Virus record (IMG/VR): IMGVR_UViG_2778261139_000008
DNA: 37,938 nt
From: a virus
Lineage: Duplodnaviria > Heunggongvirae > Uroviricota > Caudoviricetes
Direction: 5' to 3' (one strand)
Shown: positions 362-32,040 of the stretch, piece after piece
Layout: every line of letters begins with the position of its first letter
Position numbering within the stretch: the first letter of the stretch is position 1
Made by a program: the position numbers and the translations under genes
Notes under the pieces: model-generated
Told to the model about the DNA's origin: nothing
The model's database searches: none
What the model saw: the letters and a program-made list of their open reading frames with translations, nothing else

Positions 362-1099
362 TCATTCACTCTCTTTCAAACCAGTTTTAACTGTTTGTGG
401 TTTTGGGTAAGGCTGGACTTTGAATAGCTTTGTGTTGAGGCGTTTTCTGGCCCTCTTGTTCAGAAACCGGATGTAACGAAACTGTCGGAACTTATGCACA
501 CTGGCTCTGTCGATATTAGCCCTCAGATGTTCACCTCGTTGTCCGCCTCGTTTAATGGCACTCCTGCAAATCTCGTGATACCACTCGCCATCAAGTTCAT
601 AGAATGTTGATTCATGGCTGCCTACATAATCAAAATTGCTTGCCTGATACACGACACCAAGACAGCCACAACGCTCATCTGCAAACGACTGAACCCACTG
701 TACCTGCGGATAAAGCTGCCTGATTAGCTTGAGCGCGTAACTGATTGCCCTTGATTCGGAGTTTCTCGGCATACAGTCATGCATCCATAGCCGGTTAAGC
801 TCCATATATTCTCGGTTCTGCGTACCCGTTACGACGCGTGCACCACTGTTTGGGTTAAGGGCGTAACCCCATTGCATTACGCCAACAAGTTCCCGTTCTG
901 AAAATATACCCAGATGAAGGTAGGAATTATTTACGAAACGGTGGCTGTAATGTTTATTGACGATAACCAGTCTGGCCAGCCAGCAACTTATTGTCTCAAC
1001 CCGCAACTCACGGGAGCCATAACCAACGATATTGTCGTTATAGCGAATAAGTTCAGGCGTGCTGATGATACGGGATGTGACTTGCTTTCTGTTCCCCAC
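362..1099 (-). CDS. mom: Mom-like DNA modification protein
   Basis: 245-aa ORF immediately downstream of, and overlapping, a Com-like zinc-finger gene at the phage right end, as in Mu com-mom. The annotated start is GTG, so the true start is uncertain. Confidence 0.7.
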
Positions 1100-1253
1100 G
1101 ACAGGATTTCCTTGTGTATGTGGGGTGCTCTGTGGCGCTCGGAGATGTGATTTGATTGAGGGTTTTACAGCGCGGACATTTTACTTCCAGATAACTGAAA
1201 CTGGCCCGTGCCAGTAGCTTATTGCAGTGTCGGCACCGTATGTTTCGATACAT
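1053..1253 (-). CDS. com: Com-like zinc-finger translational activator of mom
   Basis: [10 protein letters not shown]...VKCPRCK C4 zinc-finger closely resembles Mu Com. ATG at 1253 with AGGAGG upstream; the ORF track extends to a TTG at 1298. The 3' end overlaps mom by 47 nt. Confidence 0.8.
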
Positions 1254-1298
1254 GGCCGCATAACCTCCTGCTTTGTTGTTGATGCCTTTCTCATGCAA

Positions 1299-1440
1299 TC
1301 GATCGACAAAAACGATCGATTCGATTTGTTTAATTGATACAACAAATAGATTTAAAAGTCATCAACAATGATTCAGGGCGGTGATTATTTACTTAAAGAA
1401 ACGAAGAGTTAGGTGGTGAAAACGATCATAAAATGATCAT
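1299..1440 (-). promoter_or_regulatory. Candidate com-mom promoter/regulatory region with GATC clusters
   Basis: AT-rich region upstream of com with GATC at 1301-1304 and 1314-1317 (embedded in a CGATCGA...CGATCGA repeat) and a second pair at 1424-1427 and 1435-1438. In Mu, mom transcription is Dam/OxyR-controlled through clustered GATC sites. Confidence 0.4.
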
Positions 1441-1525
1441 TTTATTGACTTTTTATACAGTGAAGGTAGGATCGCGCGTATATGTAGTATGTTTCAAATC
1501 AACAGGATACTACATAAAAGGGAAA

Positions 1526-1551
1526 CCCAGCATAGCTGGAACTATGCTGGG
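1526..1551 (-). terminator. Hairpin (10-bp perfect stem CCCAGCATAG/CTATGCTGGG, 6-nt loop) followed by a T-rich tract on the minus strand
   Basis: Perfect inverted repeat seen directly. T-rich run (TTTCCCTTTTAT) on the minus-strand 3' side. No obvious upstream gene on that strand, so the function is unclear. Confidence 0.3.
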
Positions 1552-1659
1552 TCAATCTGTAAAAACTTGCATCAATGCTTTACTTCGAGCTCGTGGCGTA
1601 TCCTATGATATTCCCCGGTCTCCTGTAAAGCAGAGATGCATAAAAAGGAGATCTTTATC

Positions 1660-1830
1660 ATGGATAAAGAGCCTGTTTGCCCTGCCTGTAAGACTCCCTT
1701 ACAGCTCATCTATCGCCGTTCTCGATCTCAAAATGGCAAGACATACAAACCAAAAAATGCTTCCTGTTTCAGGATGCTGATATGTCCTGCCTGTTCTCCC
1801 CGGAGGGAAAATACACAAAACGTGCATTAA
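1660..1830 (+). CDS. Small zinc-ribbon protein (CPAC...CPAC), unknown function
   Basis: ATG at 1660 preceded by AAAGGAG at good spacing; 56 aa with two CPAC pairs; plus strand, convergent with the cargo operon. Confidence 0.4.
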   Translation: MDKEPVCPACKTPLQLIYRRSRSQNGKTYKPKNASCFRMLICPACSPRRENTQNVH

Positions 1831-1839
1831 CAAATTCAC

Positions 1840-1859
1840 CCGGCAGGGAAACCTGCCGG
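1840..1859. terminator. GC-rich hairpin (CCGGCAGG-GAAA-CCTGCCGG) between convergent genes; probable bidirectional terminator
   Basis: Perfect 8-bp stem with GAAA tetraloop located between the stop of the plus-strand Zn-ribbon ORF (1830) and the stop of the minus-strand 81-aa ORF (1869). Flanking T-rich bases are modest. Confidence 0.5.
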
Positions 1860-1868
1860 TCGGTATTG

Positions 1869-2114
1869 TTACATCATAGTACCGTCAGTTCCGGGTTGAA
1901 CCGGCTCTGGTTGCTCTACGGGTTGAGGCTCATTTTCCGTGCTGTTTTCAGCCGGAGAACGACCAACCATTCGGGCCAGCACTTCATCAACATATGCGTC
2001 GATTTGTGCCTCAAAATCCTTGCGAACCTGCGCCTTCAGCACGCGGTTCACTTCTTCAGAATAAAGTGCCTGTTTGACAAGCTCTTCAGTAACCGTGCCT
2101 TTAATCTCTGGCAT
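1869..2114 (-). CDS. Hypothetical protein, 81 aa, acidic Pro/Glu-rich C-terminus
   Basis: ATG-started ORF directly downstream of the small membrane ORF in the cargo operon; no family recognised. Confidence 0.5.
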   Translation of the reverse strand: MPEIKGTVTEELVKQALYSEEVNRVLKAQVRKDFEAQIDAYVDEVLARMVGRSPAENSTENEPQPVEQPEPVQPGTDGTMM

Positions 2115-2149
2115 GAATATTCTCCTTTCCTTTTCTGGTTCACAAAAAA

Positions 2150-2329
2150 TTAAATCTGACCGGAGTCTTTCGGCTGCGGCATTACAGCACCGCTTTTTAT
2201 CTTTTCCTCGGCAGCTGCATCAATTTTATTTCGAAAATAATTGCGAATAATTTTATAACCACCGCTGACAAGCAACAGACAACAAACCACCGTGCAGAAA
2301 TACAGCAGGCAGACGTTTATATATGTCAT
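2150..2329 (-). CDS. Small membrane protein (59 aa; one N-terminal TM helix, charged C-terminal tail)
   Basis: Hand-translated: MTYINVCLLYFCTVVCCLLLVSGGYKIIRNYFRNKIDAAAEEKIKSGAVMPQPKDSGQI. ATG at 2329 with GAGG-type RBS. Below the 60-aa cutoff of the ORF track. Confidence 0.45.
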   Translation of the reverse strand: MTYINVCLLYFCTVVCCLLLVSGGYKIIRNYFRNKIDAAAEEKIKSGAVMPQPKDSGQI

Positions 2330-2386
2330 ATAAGCCTCACTCTTATTAACTGATGTTACAGCCGGATAAATTCCCGGCCGTCACGA

Positions 2387-4435
2387 TTATGCCGCAGGGG
2401 TATTAACCTCAAGGACAACGCTCTCAAAAGACACGCCATAAGTTGCCCCTTTGGTGACATCTGTCAGTGTCAGCGTATCTTTGGCAGGGGAAAGTGCATC
2501 TTTCACCATCTGGAATGCCTGGCCCGGAGTGCCATCCAGCACAGGCGTTACCTGGGCACTTCCCGCCGTAAACTTCAGGACAAGTGTATGCCACTGGTTA
2601 TTGTAGGCTCCAAATGATCCCAGTTTCGTATTCCCCCCTGTTTTATGGTGCATCAGATTTAACTGGCCGCCTGTTGTCTGGAGATAATACGCCATCAGGA
2701 ACGGTGTGCCTGTACCACTCATGGTTACACCTTCCGGGACCGTATCGGTGTGGAGGTAAATACCCAGAGCAAACTGGCCTTCTTTTACTTCACCTGACAG
2801 ACGGAATTTACAGGTCAACTGACCACCATGCTTCAGAAGTTCACCGGCTGCATCAGTTCCATGGGTAAGCGTCCAGGTTTTTCCGCTTTGTTTGGATACG
2901 GTCAACGCTTTACCTTCGTCCGTCAGCTGGATTGTACCATCTGTAATTTTCCAGCCCTGAGCCGGGGCTTCTCCTGCTGATGCTTTAAGTGAAAGCAGCG
3001 TACGGAGTGACGGGGATGTCGGATGGGGGGACTCACTGCCTCCTGGCTGACTACCTGTCGGCGCTTCCGGTTTCCCACCCGGCGCGGGCTGAGGCAGGGC
3101 TTCACCATCAGGGGCCACACCGGCAATAAATGCAGAGGTCAGACCTGCATATTTAAGAATTGCTGATGCAAAACGATCTGAGACCAGAAAACGGCGCGCC
3201 CAGGAGCTAAAATGGGTTGCCCTGGATGCTGTTGTCCAGTTGCCATCTCCCCGTGATTCCGCACCATAATACCCGGCAGAAGCGATATCCGGGTCGTGCT
3301 CCGGCAGGTTGGTCGCGGTTTTATTACCGAACTCATCGTGCATCAGTGGAACAAAGTGAATGTTCTCGGAAGCCCGGTTTTTATATCCGCTATAAATGGT
3401 TTCATATGCCGCCGGGTTCTTCTCTTTCCAGTCATAGGTTGTGTCACCACATAACCACGGCACACTGTCTGATGAACCACCAATACACTGACCGGAGAAA
3501 GCACCAAGATCCGCACGGAATTTTTTCACCATCGCAGTAAACTGGGCACCATGCTGGGCCGGGGTCGCTTTAAGGTCTCCTTCCCCCTGAATCCATACGA
3601 CAGATAACAGCACATTCTTTGGATTCGCCTCAAGTGCCGCTTTAGTTCGACTGACAAGATCCTGATACAGTGGGGTATCCACTCCCCAGCGTAGTGACGC
3701 CTCGGCTGCACCACTTGCCGGATCGAATGAGCCAACTGCGCCGGTTGTAAAAGCAGAGCCGCCACGGGCACAGGGAACCAGTAAAATCCCGGCATCAGCA
3801 GGAATCACCGGTAATACTTTTTTCGCAATATGAAGTCCCTGCCCCACACAACCATACTGCCCTTTTTTCAGGTCTGCTTTTGGATGGTTCAGCAGACTCA
3901 TATTCTGAACATCATGAAGGCAGTGATCTGCTGGAATGATTTCATTGTATTTGCAGGGAATACCTCCGGGGGTTTGTGTATTCCTGCGTGCCAGCTGCAT
4001 AATACGTGGATCAGGACGATCATAAGAATCCGGAAGGGGCAACCCTTCACCATAAGATGAAGCATTGGACTGGCCGGCTATAACAATCACGTAATACCAG
4101 GAAGGGGAGCTGGAAGCAGTTTCATTTCCTGACGGACGGGTATGTGTTTCAGCATTATCCCAGTCTGACGGTTCAGCAGTACCGGCAACATCAGCACTTA
4201 ACGGAATGACCGCACCAATACCCGCTCCGGTAATTTCCACACTCGGATCACCGGATACTGGCCTTACCCACAGGCAATCCCGTGTATTAAAACTGATGAG
4301 ACAGTCAGCAAATGTCATTCCTCCTTTTGTTTCGGCCGGAGGAAAGGGAGCCTCAAGAAATGCCGCTGTACCACCGGAAACTTTAACAGTAAAGTTTCCG
4401 GGCATTGATGATAGTTGAACCCATTTGGACGTCAT
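2387..4435 (-). CDS. SGNH/SASA-family carbohydrate O-acetylesterase-like protein with Pro/Gly-rich linker and C-terminal beta-rich (lectin-like) domain; NanS-p-like or tailspike-type deacetylase
   Basis: 682 aa, ATG start. Motifs VIVIAGQSNASSYGEG and VVWIQGEGD match the nucleophile and acid motifs of sialate O-acetylesterase-type SGNH hydrolases. Low-complexity P/G/S linker near residue 440. Not part of the canonical Mu gene set. Confidence 0.6.
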   Translation of the reverse strand: MTSKWVQLSSMPGNFTVKVSGGTAAFLEAPFPPAETKGGMTFADCLISFNTRDCLWVRPVSGDPSVEITGAGIGAVIPLSADVAGTAEPSDWDNAETHTRPSGNETASSSPSWYYVIVIAGQSNASSYGEGLPLPDSYDRPDPRIMQLARRNTQTPGGIPCKYNEIIPADHCLHDVQNMSLLNHPKADLKKGQYGCVGQGLHIAKKVLPVIPADAGILLVPCARGGSAFTTGAVGSFDPASGAAEASLRWGVDTPLYQDLVSRTKAALEANPKNVLLSVVWIQGEGDLKATPAQHGAQFTAMVKKFRADLGAFSGQCIGGSSDSVPWLCGDTTYDWKEKNPAAYETIYSGYKNRASENIHFVPLMHDEFGNKTATNLPEHDPDIASAGYYGAESRGDGNWTTASRATHFSSWARRFLVSDRFASAILKYAGLTSAFIAGVAPDGEALPQPAPGGKPEAPTGSQPGGSESPHPTSPSLRTLLSLKASAGEAPAQGWKITDGTIQLTDEGKALTVSKQSGKTWTLTHGTDAAGELLKHGGQLTCKFRLSGEVKEGQFALGIYLHTDTVPEGVTMSGTGTPFLMAYYLQTTGGQLNLMHHKTGGNTKLGSFGAYNNQWHTLVLKFTAGSAQVTPVLDGTPGQAFQMVKDALSPAKDTLTLTDVTKGATYGVSFESVVLEVNTPAA

Positions 4436-21082: not shown

Positions 21083-21203
21083 ATTGCCTCCGTATAAAAT
21101 ATGAATATAAAATAAGCAGGCGGTCAGTGTACGCTTAACTGGTAAAGTCGGTGCCTGCCTCCGGGTGGATCATGTATGCGGGTTCGACCCCCGCCACTGA
21201 CCG

Positions 21204-27872: not shown

Positions 27873-28335
27873 CCGCCGAACGGCGGGCCTCAAGGCCGGG
27901 GAGTTTCACCCCCTTTGAATAAATCCAGCGGATATACTGCTTACAGGACGCGGGCATCTGCCCGGCATTGATCAGGCGCAGAAGCGTGGAGTTGCGAAAG
28001 TTCGTTTCACCGGCCCAGAAGATCCACGAAGCCAGCGCCACCGTCTGACCACGGGTAAGCGGCACCTGAACACGCCGATCAATGGCCGCAAAGGCCCATT
28101 TCATGTCCTTTTCCAGTAGTTCCAGGCATTCTTCATCTGTCAGGGTCATACCCGGTTTCACATCCGGGCCGGTATGGCCGTAACAGATGGTGGGTGTACC
28201 GGTGGGATCGATATACGTGGAGTTTTCTTTCCCTTCCCAGTAACCGGTGTAATGCGTGGCAATCGTGAACGTCCCGGCACCGGCCAGAACAAGGGCAATC
28301 AGCTTTTTACGCAGTGGTGCGGGGAGTTTTGGCAT
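27835..28335 (-). CDS. Endolysin, phage lysozyme family with N-terminal signal-arrest-release-like hydrophobic segment
   Basis: 166 aa; N-terminal weakly hydrophobic Gly/Ala-rich segment (LIALVLAGAGTFTIA) followed by a lysozyme-like core with TICYGHTG. Confidence 0.88.
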   Translation of the reverse strand: MPKLPAPLRKKLIALVLAGAGTFTIATHYTGYWEGKENSTYIDPTGTPTICYGHTGPDVKPGMTLTDEECLELLEKDMKWAFAAIDRRVQVPLTRGQTVALASWIFWAGETNFRNSTLLRLINAGQMPASCKQYIRWIYSKGVKLPGLEARRSADEWLCRYDLPKV

Positions 28336-28406
28336 TGTTACGCTGTCTCATGATGTTCTCTGAGTCAGCGTAACGGTGAAGGAGAGGCGGCAGGCTTTGC
28401 GGAATA

Positions 28407-28832
28407 TCAGAAAAGTGGCGGTTGCGTTCTTGCCAGATGCAGACGGCGCTGTTCGCGTATGACGGTATAAATCTGGGTTTCTGACATCCGGTAATGGCGG
28501 CGAAGGGATTCAATTTTCTCGCCCCGGTCCCAGCGCGAAAATATCTCATTGTTTCGCAGCTCGGCAAAGAGAGATTCCCCGACCGGCAGGTAATAACCCC
28601 GTCCGCCCATATAGGCTGCCTGAGCCGCAGCCACCTTGCGTGCCAGTTTACCGGCCAGTACCGGCTCAATCCCCTGACGCTGAAGTTCTGCGCCGGTGAC
28701 TTCAACCAGTTCTGACAGGGTCCGCGGCCAGTTCTTTTTGAGAACATCATCAGGGATGTCATCAAGGCGGTCGATAAGGGCGTGCAGTTGCTCACTGTCA
28801 CCACCAAACATGCTCATCTGAGTTTCTGCCAT
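28407..28832 (-). CDS. Mor/C-family transcriptional activator (middle or late gene activator)
   Basis: 141 aa; C-terminal half aligns by eye with the Mu Mor HTH region (…GGRGYYLP… / …SETQIYTVIREQRRL); located just upstream of the lysis genes. Confidence 0.75.
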   Translation of the reverse strand: MAETQMSMFGGDSEQLHALIDRLDDIPDDVLKKNWPRTLSELVEVTGAELQRQGIEPVLAGKLARKVAAAQAAYMGGRGYYLPVGESLFAELRNNEIFSRWDRGEKIESLRRHYRMSETQIYTVIREQRRLHLARTQPPLF

Positions 28833-28901
28833 ATCAGCCTCCGGTTCTCGCGTTCCCGGTAAGTTTAAAATAAAAATCCCGCGTTGTGGCGGGATTTGGA
28901 G

Positions 28902-29411
28902 TTAACGGGGAAGTGATTTTTCATACTGCCTGCAAACGGCGTCATACCCCATCAGCGTGCGTTCGGGCATTCCCATCGCGGCCAGCATTTTGCGGCGGTG
29001 CCATCGCTTGAGACGCTCCAGCACATCTGAGGCCAGGGCGGGGTGTTGCTCCAGCCACTGCCAGTTTGCCACACCTTCGCCGCCGTTTTGCGCGGCCGTC
29101 TGCGATTTCACCCAGCGGTTAAGGGCGGTTTCCGCACCATCGGTGATAAAGCCCTGCCGGTGCATCACCTTCCAGATGGCGCGAATTTTGGCGGTCACCG
29201 TACCCGGTTTTAAGGCCCGGTTAACCGGGTTCTGACGCACTTTAAAACCGCGTTTTTTGAAAACATCCAGCACGCGGGATAACTCATCCGGTGACATATC
29301 CCGGCAGCTGGTTTTGCCGGTGGCTGCCAGCAGCGCGGATGTATAAGTCTCATCATCCAGGGCAAGCTCGCGCTTTGCCACATGAATGGCGGATATCAGT
29401 TTTCCTCTCAT
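28902..29411 (-). CDS. GemA-like regulatory protein (Mu gp16 family)
   Basis: 169 aa; N-terminus LISAIHVAKRELALDDETYTSALLAATGKTSCRDMSPDELSRVLDVFKKRGFK resembles the Mu-like prophage gp16/GemA family. Confidence 0.65.
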   Translation of the reverse strand: MRGKLISAIHVAKRELALDDETYTSALLAATGKTSCRDMSPDELSRVLDVFKKRGFKVRQNPVNRALKPGTVTAKIRAIWKVMHRQGFITDGAETALNRWVKSQTAAQNGGEGVANWQWLEQHPALASDVLERLKRWHRRKMLAAMGMPERTLMGYDAVCRQYEKSLPR

Positions 29412-29704
29412 ACCGTATTTACCTTTTTACGGACATGGAAAGCCTTTTCTGCCTCATCCCACCGGGCATGGTGTGTTGGTGGAATAATCATTATGTGCCA
29501 GCCATCTCTGGTTGTTATCCGGCAGAAAAATTCACCGCTATATAACACAATGGCCTGCTGAATGAGCGCATCAGCCGCCCGTTCAACCAGATGTCTTTTA
29601 TCAAAAAAGCAGATGATTTTTCGACATAACCACCGGGTAATAACAAATGCGCCGAAAAAGGATGTGATATATAAGCACCAGAACAACAGAGAACTATTGT
29701 CCAT
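29408..29704 (-). CDS. Hypothetical membrane protein (98 aa)
   Basis: ATG-started ORF in an AT-rich block; N-terminal hydrophobic helix. Confidence 0.45.
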   Translation of the reverse strand: MDNSSLLFWCLYITSFFGAFVITRWLCRKIICFFDKRHLVERAADALIQQAIVLYSGEFFCRITTRDGWHIMIIPPTHHARWDEAEKAFHVRKKVNTV

Positions 29705-29891
29705 TATCTTTCTCCTTATTCAGTCTTCTGCGACATTCGGCACAGTCATCAGGGCTTTCAAATGTATCCGGCTCGCGATTATGAGCCAGATATAACCACC
29801 GCCTACATATACTGATATTATCGCCAGTTTTAAAAAAATGATGCTTCTTAGCCATCAGAGGGCGCGCCCATCCAGCGGGTAGACTATTCAT
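29694..29891 (-). CDS. Hypothetical small Cys/His-containing protein (65 aa)
   Basis: ATG-started ORF in the AT-rich block, overlapping its neighbours by a few codons. Confidence 0.4.
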   Translation of the reverse strand: MNSLPAGWARPLMAKKHHFFKTGDNISICRRWLYLAHNREPDTFESPDDCAECRRRLNKEKDNGQ

Positions 29892-30258
29892 TTGCTTTAT
29901 CCTCCATACTGGACAAAATCATCTGTATTAATGTCGGGCGTGGAGATATACGCATTTCATTAAGCGTCTGAAGGGCAGCAACAGCTGCCTGTTTATCGGT
30001 GCCTTTGGCAATTTCCGCAAGAGAATGCACAATCCATAACGGACTTAACGCCACGACTGAATCCAGAATCATGTCATCCATAATAATTTCTGACACATCC
30101 CGCTTATCACATTCCTTATCCATAAAAGAAACGATTTTTTCCACATCTTCCGGTTTCATGCCTCCGGCGATAAGAAATTTGCGATACTCATAAGACGATC
30201 TTAATTCAATACTCATATTCATCTCCTGTAACTCTGACAAGGACGTGATTTTTCTCAT
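29884..30258 (-). CDS. Hypothetical protein (124 aa)
   Basis: ATG-started ORF in the AT-rich block; no family recognised. Confidence 0.45.
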   Translation of the reverse strand: MRKITSLSELQEMNMSIELRSSYEYRKFLIAGGMKPEDVEKIVSFMDKECDKRDVSEIIMDDMILDSVVALSPLWIVHSLAEIAKGTDKQAAVAALQTLNEMRISPRPTLIQMILSSMEDKANE

Positions 30259-30440
30259 TTATGTTTTCCAGTAATACGGATATATATGTCGATAAGAAGA
30301 TTCATAATAAACAGGAAGAGCGACATCCTGATAAAGAACCAAATATCTGGCATCATGGACAGGTTTCCTGTAATCGCAAATATAAAACCACCCCCCAACA
30401 CCGGAACGAAAATTGCGAAAAATACAAGTCTCTTTATCAT
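30255..30440 (-). CDS. Small hydrophobic membrane protein (61 aa, two predicted TM helices)
   Basis: ATG-started ORF, ATGA overlap with the upstream gene; very hydrophobic. Confidence 0.4.
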   Translation of the reverse strand: MIKRLVFFAIFVPVLGGGFIFAITGNLSMMPDIWFFIRMSLFLFIMNLLIDIYIRITGKHK

Positions 30441-30988
30441 GGCGTTAACTCCCGTAATACAGCGTCCTCGGCAGTCCGGCGATGGTGATAAATAAAATTC
30501 ACCGTACTCTCGGATAATTCAAATTTCTCGCCTATTTCCCGGAAGGTAAGACGTCGTGGTGATTCAGCATCCCGTAATTCACGAATAAGATGAACATCAT
30601 CGTCAGGTATACGGGTGAAGGGCAGCAATTCTCCGTATTTTTTCATGCTTACGCCAATATATCGCGCCCGATTGTGGACAGAATCCCGGTCTCGCCCCAG
30701 ATATTCTCCTATTTGCTTACCGGTCATCGTTCTGGCATTTTTTCGGATAAATTTATCTTCATCATGTTTAAATCTTGGACGTTTGCATTTGAGCAACTCC
30801 GGGTAAGTACCGCGTAATAAAACAATCCGGTTATGTACACCCCAGAAACTTCTTTTTACCCTGACAGCAATATCCTTAACCGGGGTGGATGGATAAAGCG
30901 CAATCAGCAGCGCATCTTCTTCAGGTGTCCACGCACGGACATGAGCTGGTGCCTGACCTTTTCGCCCCATGGGTTGTAAAATCATCAT
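30437..30988 (-). CDS. DNA-binding protein with repeated HTH-like motifs; possible additional regulator
   Basis: 183 aa; three segments with HTH character, the last resembling the Mor/C-type HTH (RRLTFREIGEKFELSESTVNFIYHHRR). Confidence 0.5.
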   Translation of the reverse strand: MMILQPMGRKGQAPAHVRAWTPEEDALLIALYPSTPVKDIAVRVKRSFWGVHNRIVLLRGTYPELLKCKRPRFKHDEDKFIRKNARTMTGKQIGEYLGRDRDSVHNRARYIGVSMKKYGELLPFTRIPDDDVHLIRELRDAESPRRLTFREIGEKFELSESTVNFIYHHRRTAEDAVLRELTP

Positions 30989-30991
30989 ACA

Positions 30992-31507
30992 TCACCCCCT
31001 GACTCGCTTTTCAGCAGCATAAAACTCATCAGACAGAATTTCGGTCATTTTCTGATTTGCGGGTTTTACGCCGCACTCAAGGTAAATCACATCGTCAACG
31101 CAGAACCACTTCACAGGGCCAAACATGATTGCCGAGAAATCAATACCCAGCCAGAACAACAGTGCATCGGTTCTGGCATACGTGACGGGCGAATATTCAC
31201 GCCACAGACTGTTAAGTTCGTCAGAGGCAACGCGCAGGGCTTTGGGAATACGTGATGTGCGCGGTGTGCAGCTCCAGCCATTCGACGCAGTCGGTTTTCG
31301 CCATAAGTCGCGATGAAAAGGATATTTGTCATCCATAAAGCGCAGCCCTTTAAAACAAAAGCCACTGATACCGGATACAAATACCGACCGGCACGCAACA
31401 TTCAGCACGGCCTCAAGGCGTTTTGCCTCATCCTTAACTTTCTGGCAGTCCTGCTGATATTTTTGCCACGCGGCCAGCGCGGAAGGGTTTGATGTTTTAA
31501 AGAACAT
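30992..31507 (-). CDS. Hypothetical early protein (171 aa)
   Basis: ATG-started ORF, translationally coupled to neighbours; no family recognised. Confidence 0.5.
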   Translation of the reverse strand: MFFKTSNPSALAAWQKYQQDCQKVKDEAKRLEAVLNVACRSVFVSGISGFCFKGLRFMDDKYPFHRDLWRKPTASNGWSCTPRTSRIPKALRVASDELNSLWREYSPVTYARTDALLFWLGIDFSAIMFGPVKWFCVDDVIYLECGVKPANQKMTEILSDEFYAAEKRVRG

Positions 31508-32040
31508 TACGCCACCTCCGCAGATATCCCGGCAGGCGCGGCCGTCCGGTCAACAATCAGGTAACGCAGAACGCGCGAGGTGATATTCCAGCCGCTTAAA
31601 CCGCAGATAATGACACCCAGGCGTATGTCGATATACGCCATCACAAACTGGGGCACGCCTTCTTTCATGGCCTGCTCATCAACTTCAGCCACCACATAAA
31701 CGGTTTCACAGGTCAGAACGCCCTGAGCAAATTCCCACGCCATTGACGGAATATCATGCCCCTCAATCCACGGCAGGGATTTTCTGAAGCTGCACCACTG
31801 AACATCATCAGCCGCACCTTCCTGGCTGCATTTGCGACGAACCGGCTGCACCGGGCGGGGACGCGGAATATCATAAAAACCGTTACATTCCGTCAGCACC
31901 CCGGCATCGACCGCATCACGCAGAAAATAAACCATCGAGGATGGCGGCATATTCATTTTTTCAGCCAGAATGCCGCAGGTCAGACGCCCGTAAATACTCA
32001 GCCAGTTTTTAACCCCTTCAAGCACTTTTGCATCAATCAT
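31507..32040 (-). CDS. Hypothetical early protein (177 aa), possible N-terminal winged-helix
   Basis: ATG-started ORF; stop overlaps the start of the next gene. Confidence 0.5.
   Translation of the reverse strand: MIDAKVLEGVKNWLSIYGRLTCGILAEKMNMPPSSMVYFLRDAVDAGVLTECNGFYDIPRPRPVQPVRRKCSQEGAADDVQWCSFRKSLPWIEGHDIPSMAWEFAQGVLTCETVYVVAEVDEQAMKEGVPQFVMAYIDIRLGVIICGLSGWNITSRVLRYLIVDRTAAPAGISAEVA

Follow-up and report, generated by a model that had tools for sequence, protein, structure and literature searches.

A variable slot of small AT-rich genes upstream of gemA in an Sp18-type Mu-like prophage of Escherichia coli O157:H7

The window analyzed here, the whole 37,938-nt stretch of IMG/VR virus record IMGVR_UViG_2778261139_000008, is an Sp18-type Mu-like prophage of E. 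coli O157:H7. A 1501-bp query matched public E. coli O157:H7 chromosomes at 100%, and Sp18 has been described as an intact prophage that is induced spontaneously and packaged (PMC2669165). According to RefSeq annotation and Pfam, the genes follow a Mu-type order: transposase, AAA ATPase, Gam, homologs of Mu_11 and Mu_12, an HTH gene, four small genes (orfA to orfD, products A to D), GemA, Mor and lysozyme. The four small genes occupy positions 29408–30440 on the minus strand, which is the early strand, between the transposition/gam genes and gemA-mor, which puts them in the positional class of Mu-type semi-essential early-region accessory genes. In the matching public genomes, PGAP annotates all four as hypothetical proteins.

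The block is framed by two conserved genes. The left border of the slot is a gene encoding a 183-aa HTH DNA-binding protein (30437–30988, minus strand), which matched phrog_323, "transcriptional regulator" (E 6.3e-59), shares 30.7% identity over 101 aa with Mu_9 and was kept across all slot variants compared by blastn; Pfam yielded only HTH matches below threshold. An earlier sequence-only reading had identified this neighbor as a Mor/C-like regulator, a label that we rejected because the protein has no Pfam Mor (PF08765) match. The Mor family protein is encoded instead at 28407–28832, downstream of gemA (Pfam Mor E 2.8e-32). The right border is gemA itself (gp16 family; 28902–29411, minus strand; Pfam GemA E 3.2e-30), whose product is 43.9% identical to Mu GemA. 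Five nucleotides past the gemA stop, a consensus scan located a terminator-like hairpin with a 9-bp stem and a T-rich tail (28874–28897, minus strand), which, as a pattern match, is likely the end or an attenuation point of the transcript carrying A–D and gemA.

Start and stop codons interlock along most of the block. The ATG of orfA overlaps the stop of the HTH gene by 4 nt (ATGA), orfB and orfC overlap by 8 nt, orfC and orfD by 11 nt, and the stop of orfD overlaps the gemA start by 4 nt, again as ATGA. Between orfA and orfB, with the orfB start at 30216, there is a 38-nt gap whose spacer carries a Shine-Dalgarno sequence; the four small overlapping ORFs of the sequence-only reading are real and on the minus strand, except that this pair does not overlap. 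Substitutions at the three codon positions numbered 7/3/11 in orfA (against L002), 5/2/12 in orfB, 2/1/9 in orfC and 8/3/16 in orfD, and this third-position excess supports the coding status of all four genes. An Rfam scan of 28300–31100 returned no match. Within the scanned region, we observed four promoter-like sites against 3.9 expected, using a sigma-70 consensus only and in AT-rich DNA that can hide weak promoters, and four terminator-like sites against 3.0 expected. Inside the block, neither kind of site exceeded chance, and the consensus scan placed no promoter-like site upstream of orfA on the minus strand and found no promoter and terminator of the block's own bracketing it in the manner of a moron.

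The block has a GC content of 41.5%, compared with 53.7% for the whole window. Windows of 1033 bp averaged 53.8% (sd 4.8%), the lowest of them (41.2%, at 29581) falling within the block, and among 400-bp bins the minimum (38.5%) is at 30001–30400. Individual values for GC and GC3 were 36.0 and 43.5 for orfA, 40.8 and 39.6 for orfB, 44.4 and 39.4 for orfC, and 43.4 and 45.5 for orfD, as against 57.3 and 64.7 for gemA and 56.1 and 63.5 for the lysozyme gene. The drop is thus present at silent positions too and is not merely an effect of hydrophobic amino acids. These values confirm the previously noted stretch of about 1 kb of lower GC, although the range given for it, 35–42%, is slightly low for orfC and orfD. 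Each alternative filling of the slot in related prophages is AT-rich as well (43.9–47.1% GC), indicating that low GC goes with the slot itself and does not single out the A–D cargo.

Two of the four products were expected to be membrane proteins, and hydropathy analysis agreed for A and D. In the ORF list, orfA (30255–30440, minus strand) encodes a 61-aa protein of pI 10.4 with hydrophobic stretches at about residues 1–28 and 32–58, which supports its assignment as a small hairpin membrane protein with two predicted hydrophobic helices. It matched phrog_19804 weakly (E 6.5e-5), and its relatives in IMG/VR are close ones only. The 98-aa product of orfD (29408–29704, minus strand; phrog_17269, E 1.6e-33) has a hydrophobic N-terminal stretch at about residues 4–24, followed by a soluble domain of ~70 aa, supporting a membrane protein with a predicted N-terminal transmembrane anchor. 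D exists as two alleles that are about 50% identical and have the anchor in common, and its DNA similarity to L005 ends after the gene's first 121 nt, making it a case of domain-level allele replacement. Homologs of D formed seven clusters, from E. coli where named.

The second gene, orfB (29884–30216, minus strand), encodes an acidic, predicted all-alpha protein of 110 aa (pI 4.8) that matched phrog_1988 with E 5e-44, the alignment beginning at residue 15 of a 124-aa form. That form, the longest in the ORF list (29884–30258), was rejected, as its extension is not conserved and homology to other variants starts 13 nt upstream of 30216. The ATG at 30216 has AGGAG 6 nt upstream and is the start given by both PGAP and the PHROG profile. 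B homologs fell into 13 clusters, and those with a source name are all from E. coli. Its AF2 model, six helices built from a 12-sequence alignment, had a pLDDT of 52 and was left out of the fold search as unreliable.

The third gene, orfC (29694–29891, minus strand), encodes a basic 65-aa protein (pI 9.0; phrog_2358, E 2.6e-33) belonging to a large family that is widespread in phages and has no Pfam entry. We found 982 representative clusters (clustered at 50% identity) at E ≤ 1e-3, and tblastn retrieved 287 phage records, 268 of them from Pseudomonas. Residues W8, H18, C29, C50 and C53 are invariant, the last four also across 65 diverse members, which suggests a putative zinc site formed by H18, C29, C50 and C53; the C50-x2-C53 pair has classical knuckle spacing. 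The AF2 model reached a pLDDT of 76, and the structure search gave no significant zinc-ribbon match. A Kunitz/BPTI assignment was rejected: the family profile aligned weakly to BPTI (E 0.0016, 21 bits), with C29 and C50 opposite BPTI Cys30 and Cys51, and two of the 65 members touched PF00014 at E 0.015, but the six-cysteine, three-disulfide Kunitz pattern is absent. Relatives of C occur in unrelated phages, namely Pbunavirus, lambdoid early-left regions and phage-plasmid-like elements, which is direct evidence for horizontal exchange of the C module. Its neighbors in these unrelated accessory regions include Ead/Ea22, DUF551, RNase_T and dATP/dGTP pyrophosphohydrolase genes, and the domain fusions seen in long family members involve only DUF551, plus one sub-threshold match. 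In a distant Salmonella Mu-like prophage, C stands alone directly upstream of GemA. GemA is missing from the surroundings of most C-family loci. A profile search of genome contigs with a narrow C alignment yielded three loci only.

The stretch from the HTH gene to gemA is mosaic: across related E. coli Mu-like prophages it occurs in at least six arrangements, with sharp junctions. Counts were made over 5426 complete E. coli genomes, 231 of which carry this gemA; within these 231, A was present in 109 (which is also its count over all 5426), B–C in 214 and D allele 1 in 163 (likewise its count over all the complete genomes). The matches to A, B and D all came from E. coli or its close relatives, and A co-occurs with either allele of D. 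Aligning the window by blastn with L002 and L004–L009 gave junctions that delimit a 201-bp variant-specific segment, the A cassette (30230–30430, minus strand; junctions 30229/30230 and 30430/30431), which is swapped elsewhere for a 667-bp X103-Y116 segment or joined by U75-X103-Y116 (blastn; L002 ORFs). Further along the slot, L008 and L009 lack B, C and D altogether and hold a Mu_14 homolog, L006 retains D alone of these three genes, and L007 keeps only a truncated B, both flanks being intact in every case. Genes on the opposite strand, moron-like in character, also occur in the slot, L007 having a DUF2513 gene and both L008 and L009 an ORF of 79 aa. These comparisons of aligned variants showed at least three independently assorting cassettes, namely A, B (usually with C) and D, within a slot whose borders are fixed and which other small genes occupy in related prophages. 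Relatives that lack some or all of A–D and keep intact flanks argue for dispensability of these genes, provided that such prophages are viable as phages.

The presence of B–C in 214 of the 231 genomes indicates that the block, judged by its distribution, is not a recent private acquisition. This qualifies the proposal that these are horizontally acquired accessory genes: the mosaic slot, the occurrence of C in unrelated phages and the lack of Mu homologs speak for it, provided that the acquisition is taken as neither recent nor private. Conservation of the block, with known functions, in all Mu-like phages, which the sequence-only reading had named as a finding that would count against the proposal, was not seen, given that Mu has none of A–D and relatives carry other sets. 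One observation counts against the reading favored below: present in about 92% of the lineage, B–C looks more like a lineage-core pair than like cargo exchanged at will, and the two genes might have a role that is specific to the lineage yet important to the phage.

Searches for known functions returned little. Pfam and NCBIfam scans of A–D gave nothing at curated cut-offs, including no Pfam toxin or antitoxin match, PADLOC returned zero families at E ≤ 1 for each of the four, and PDB sequence searches with B, C and D gave nothing useful. These Pfam, NCBIfam and PDB searches likewise brought up no homology to a characterized anti-defense inhibitor. Literature searches on the RefSeq accessions of the window's four proteins, and on two more from a sister variant, found no mention of them, and those on Mu-like early or anti-defense regions found nothing specific. 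The former statement that no family could be recognized has to be revised: all four proteins match PHROG families, each of no assigned function, and C belongs to a large one.

The anatomy of the block is well supported; the function of A–D is a guess, made by analogy with ORFans in the early regions of other phages. On balance, and with moderate confidence, we favor the reading that a variable accessory slot in the distal early operon has the block as its cargo, made up of small binders that raise lytic yield. A–D would be transcribed together with gemA from the early promoter, during lytic development only, and would be dispensable for the core transposition-replication cycle. Their sizes (61–110 aa) and lack of matches to Pfam or NCBIfam at curated cut-offs suggest small non-enzymatic binding of host or competitor targets as their most likely mode of action. 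A and D may target the inner membrane, acting on the cell-envelope or division machinery or on the entry of competing phage DNA, while B, acidic and helical, and C, with its putative zinc site, could target host or defense proteins of the cytoplasm, or nucleic acid. Together they would improve lytic yield in particular hosts, through host takeover or counter-defense.

Other readings were weighed against the same evidence. Small membrane proteins are a common type of prophage exclusion factor, and together with the AT-rich composition and the opposite-strand moron-like genes of sister variants (DUF2513 in L007, the 79-aa ORF in L008 and L009) this would suit a block of lysogen-expressed morons with its own promoter, in which A and/or D exclude superinfecting phages or alter the host. 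We consider this unlikely, since A–D are co-oriented with the early operon and tied to it by ATGA or 8–11-nt overlaps, promoter- and terminator-like sites stay at chance level with none of the former ahead of A, and PADLOC is without a match. We also doubt that B–C, possibly with D, form a lineage-specific core needed early, for example with GemA or the HTH protein, leaving A alone as cargo. The frequency of B–C beside this gemA, the translational coupling of the genes to gemA and the position of C in the Salmonella prophage all point that way, but the depleted slots of L006–L009 with their intact flanks, the absence of B, C and D from Mu and the rarity of GemA near C-family loci point the other.

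The small size and basic charge of A (61 aa, pI 10.4) recall small hydrophobic toxins, and a toxin-antitoxin or abortive-infection module, with A as toxin and a neighbor as antidote, can be envisaged. It is very improbable given that A is missing from about half of the lineage while B–C–D stay, that A is found with either D allele and the genes assort independently, and that neither PADLOC or Pfam toxin/antitoxin matches nor a separate promoter were found. Hardly credible is the notion that four short AT-rich ORFs without a functional family are spurious and that the DNA has a regulatory or structural role without coding for protein: third-position substitutions are enriched in all four frames, PHROG matches are strong for B, C and D (E 1e-33 to 5e-44), the 982 C clusters share invariant residues, Rfam gave no match and PGAP annotates every one of the genes.

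The preferred reading, a slot for accessory binders, can be extended to the idea that the C family aims at one conserved host or defense component, the slot being an early counter-defense or takeover hotspot and the two-allele soluble domain of D the trace of an arms race with a variable partner; this is speculative and, in our estimate, improbable. In other respects the finding is routine, as variable early-region cargo is a familiar temperate-phage trait and hundreds of public E. coli genomes already contain the sequence of the block. What the analysis provides is a precise map of an Sp18-type recombination slot in Shiga-toxin-producing E. coli: its borders are fixed, it takes at least six fillings, and gene frequencies were measured. 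Should one of the A–D proteins turn out to inhibit a host defense or an essential host process, further genes of this sort could conveniently be sought in the slot.

The closest comparison is Mu itself. There, too, a slot follows Mu_11/Mu_12, whose homologs precede the block in the window, and directly precedes gemA on the early strand; like A–D, its genes encode small proteins without assigned function at a GC content below the phage average (46.9% for the Mu slot). The contents differ, as the Mu slot (E14/E15 region) holds Mu_13, Mu_14 and Mu_54, which are unrelated to A–D, and all-against-all blastp of A–D with Mu_5 to Mu_20 gave no match at E ≤ 0.01. Mu also has an annotated intergenic "semi-early promoter" before gemA, whereas orfD overlaps gemA in the window, and the window's lineage has an additional HTH gene before the slot. 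In Pseudomonas Mu-like phages, anti-CRISPR and anti-defense loci likewise combine a fixed slot, interchangeable small genes and an adjoining HTH gene. This likeness is conceptual. The anti-CRISPR loci are late-region features, recognized by the aca gene that follows them and by inhibitors of proven activity, whereas the slot described here belongs to the early operon and its HTH gene is upstream and unrelated.

Two further systems share the C family. The PB1-like Pbunavirus phage 14-1 of Pseudomonas encodes a member, gp85 (45% identity over 80% of the query), in a run of small early hypothetical genes, although pbunaviruses are virulent, unlike the temperate Sp18-type prophage. When 38 early ORFans of phages 14-1, LMA2 and LBL3 were screened, a few of them, including the membrane peptides YIP, bound host proteins (PMC8085984); the screen illustrates the kind of function proposed for A–D. 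The consulted text of that paper makes no mention of gp85, for which no function is reported. The lambdoid early-left "ea" regions (Ead/Ea22, DUF551) belong to another phage type and operon and lack A, B and D, but they are likewise hypervariable strings of small early genes without assigned function, and relatives of C with 60–70% identity occur in them in dozens of IMG/VR prophage contigs.

Our analysis shows that the block at 29408–30440 of the window comprises four real genes, orfA–orfD (A–D), that are translationally coupled; they fill a slot, fixed in position and recombinationally active, in the distal part of the early operon. Consistent with the AT-richness described in the sequence-only reading, the block has a GC content of 41.5%, compared to 53.7% for the window. 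Among all windows of 1033 bp (mean GC 53.8%, sd 4.8%), the minimum, 41.2%, lies at 29581, within the block, and the lowest-GC 400-bp bin of the entire sequence is 30001–30400 (38.5%). GC3 is 39–46% across A–D versus 64–65% in gemA and the lysozyme gene, indicating that hydrophobic residues alone do not account for the GC dip.

The four small ORFs announced for the block were all found, on the minus strand like the flanking HTH gene and gemA: A (30255–30440, 61 aa), B (29884–30216, 110 aa), C (29694–29891, 65 aa) and D (29408–29704, 98 aa). The stop codon of the HTH gene and the start of A share an ATGA, the B/C overlap measures 8 nt and the C/D overlap 11 nt, AAGGAG precedes the D start codon, and the D stop and gemA start again share an ATGA. 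The longest ORF form of B, 124 aa from 30258, was rejected on four grounds in favor of the 110-aa start at 30216: AGGAG sits 6 nt upstream of this start, PGAP annotates it, the PHROG profile alignment begins at residue 15 of the long form, and homology to sister prophages starts only 13 nt upstream. Substitutions between the window and the sister prophages at the three codon positions numbered 7/3/11 in A, 5/2/12 in B, 2/1/9 in C and 8/3/16 in D, a third-position bias in every frame, so purifying selection acts on each of the four at the protein level.

The window prophage is of the Sp18 type. Sp18 itself, a Mu-like prophage found in O157 Sakai, has been described as intact, induced spontaneously and packaged efficiently (PMC2669165). 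Segment 29200–30700 (1501 bp) matches the Show KS 470-1 chromosome (E. coli O157:H7) at 100% identity, was matched in 232 of the 5426 complete E. coli genomes, and lies in a locus annotated by RefSeq as a Mu-type prophage. On the minus strand, the gene order is Ner-like HTH, Mu transposase, AAA ATPase, five small hypothetical genes, Gam, three hypothetical genes, DNA-binding protein, four hypothetical genes, gp16/GemA, Mor, lysozyme, spanins, terminase, portal, head and tail, followed by the invertible tail-fibre segment and com-mom. Positions 1–107 map to a truncated betT in NZ_CP038309.1, so the prophage sits within betT in that strain; the repressor end is missing from the window. RefSeq (PGAP) places a ‘tRNA-OTHER’ at 21123–21202 (plus strand), flanked by head-morphogenesis and virion-morphogenesis genes; an ARAGORN scan of the whole window returned no tRNA or tmRNA. 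According to the mapped RefSeq annotation, a second accessory region (about 1240–4400), between the invertase gene and com-mom, encodes a 679-aa DUF6645 protein, DUF1378 and DUF826 proteins and a 154-aa opposite-strand hypothetical gene, and contains another low-GC patch (bin 1201–1600, 39.5%).

Comparison with related Mu-like prophages for presence or absence supported the accessory character proposed earlier, as the stretch from the HTH gene to gemA, here called the slot, is mosaic and the block is not conserved across all of them. Six arrangements were seen among E. coli Sp18-type prophages, in which X103, Y116, U75, X110 and W95 are other small slot genes: A-B-C-D in this window; X103-Y116-B-C-D in loci L004 and L005; X103-D in L006; X103-Y116-truncated B with an opposite-strand DUF2513 gene (136 aa; 880–1290, plus strand) in L007; X110-W95, W95 being a Mu_14 homologue, with an opposite-strand 79-aa gene (phrog_32893; 886–1125, plus strand) in L008 and L009; and the fullest form, A-U75-X103-Y116-B-C-D, in L002, a Mu-like element within an Stx2c phage record. 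The alternative fillings are all AT-rich (43.9–47.1% GC). Similarity to A-less variants ends sharply at 30229/30230 and restarts at 30430/30431, defining a 201-bp A cassette in place of a 667-bp X-Y segment. D exists as two alleles of about 50% protein identity that share the membrane anchor and resemble each other in DNA only across the gene's initial 121 nt; A is found with either. Megablast against complete E. coli genomes recovered this gemA in 231 of them; the corresponding figures are 214 for B-C, 163 for this D allele and 109 for the A cassette. These counts indicate that the block comprises three or more modules that assort independently, B-C being close to lineage-core and A true variable cargo. 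B-C (29710–30216) is only 90–95% identical to the window in 171 of 215 E. coli records, whereas the adjacent gemA (28902–29400) is at least 99% identical in 142 of 232, so there are two B-C haplotypes recombining independently of gemA. In L006 (strain STEC1587), a plus-strand hypothetical gene (1–276) lies beside gemA in place of mor, suggesting a rearranged or truncated prophage.

The upstream neighbor, previously labeled Mor/C-like, is instead an HTH DNA-binding protein (30437–30988, minus strand; 183 aa) that matches phrog_323, has only sub-threshold Pfam HTH matches and shares about 31% identity over 101 aa with Mu E8 (Mu_9). Its gene is the conserved left border of the slot; Mu lacks it at the equivalent position. 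The Mor family protein is encoded at 28407–28832, downstream of gemA, and the interval from mor to the lysozyme gene lacks a C-like second activator gene. Within the block, promoter-like (4 versus 3.9 expected) and terminator-like (4 versus 3.0 expected) consensus matches are at chance level, the same scan revealed no minus-strand site upstream of A, and an Rfam scan of 28300–31100 gave no match. The simplest reading is that A–D and gemA would be the last cistrons of a long early transcript. A terminator-like hairpin (28897–28874, minus strand; consensus pattern match), with a 9-bp stem AAATCCCGC...GCGGGATTT followed by a T-rich tail, lies between gemA and mor and begins 5 nt past the gemA stop, so mor may not be a simple read-through of the early transcript as in Mu.

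Hydropathy analysis bore out the two membrane proteins expected in the block, with two hydrophobic helices in A and a single N-terminal anchor (residues 4–24) in D. A (pI 10.4) weakly matches phrog_19804 and has only close IMG/VR relatives (84–100% identity), while D matches phrog_17269 and falls in 7 clusters, from E. coli where the source is named. B is acidic (pI 4.8), matches phrog_1988 and yielded only 13 clusters among the 5.8 billion proteins searched, all at least 75% identical and, where named, all from E. coli; its AlphaFold model is all-helical and unreliable (pLDDT 52).

C is basic (pI 9.0) and belongs to a family of 982 representative clusters (exhaustive profile search, E ≤ 1e-3), mainly of 60–75 aa. 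W8, H18, C29, C50 and C53 are invariant in 65 diverse members, and the C-x2-C knuckle, together with another Cys and a His, suggests a putative structural zinc site. In a word-indexed search, relatives turned up in Salmonella, Citrobacter, Buttiauxella, Scandinavium and Trabulsiella. A C relative directly precedes GemA in a Mu-like prophage of Salmonella, and others lie in early regions of phage-plasmid-like elements near Cro, Q, RNase_T, HicAB and methylase genes. Relatives also occur in 268 records of Pseudomonas phages (Pbunavirus in those examined), including 14-1 gp85 within a run of small early genes, and in about 40 enterobacterial IMG/VR contigs beside Ead/Ea22, DUF551, dATP/dGTP pyrophosphohydrolase, RNase_T and DUF4406 genes, which are lambdoid early accessory regions.

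We consider an early-operon accessory slot with small-binder cargo the probable overall picture, its weight mostly on anatomy. A–D would be expressed from the early promoter in lytic development, would be dispensable for the core cycle and would act as small binders rather than enzymes, A and D, being membrane-embedded, at the inner membrane, and B and C in the cytoplasm. Allele replacement limited to the soluble domain of D suggests a variable partner. The mode of action is modeled, by analogy, on other phage early ORFans such as YIP, a Pbunavirus membrane peptide that binds a host diguanylate cyclase (PMC8085984). On the same analogy, a host-takeover or counter-defence function may be entertained, tentatively.

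Lysogen-expressed morons are an improbable alternative. The opposite-strand genes of L007–L009 look more like independently expressed morons than A–D do. A lineage-specific core role of B-C(-D) seems comparably doubtful; L006 carries D without B-C. By the features examined, the block falls in no defence, toxin–antitoxin, Mor/C or Kunitz family, and a toxin–antitoxin module is very unlikely; still less credible, given the codon-position bias, are spurious ORFs. Beyond the accessory-slot picture, it is a long shot that the C family is a widespread phage effector, with its putative zinc site and one conserved target, and the slot an early-operon counter-defence hotspot, which would be of moderate interest if true. 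The block sequence and ORFs are already public, annotated as hypothetical, and AT-rich mosaic early cargo is a familiar phenomenon.

By position, the block is part of the Mu semi-essential early region, though none of its genes has a homologue in Mu. Mu_11 and Mu_12 are homologues of the genes at 31507–32040 (67% identity) and 30992–31507 (54%), and the two GemA proteins share 44% identity, but Mu has no counterpart to any of A–D. Its equivalent slot, AT-rich (46.9% GC) like those of the E. coli prophages, holds the unrelated Mu_13, Mu_14 and Mu_54, with an annotated semi-early promoter. In its behavior the block resembles the variable accessory regions found among the early genes of lambdoid phages, and the C family is common to both.
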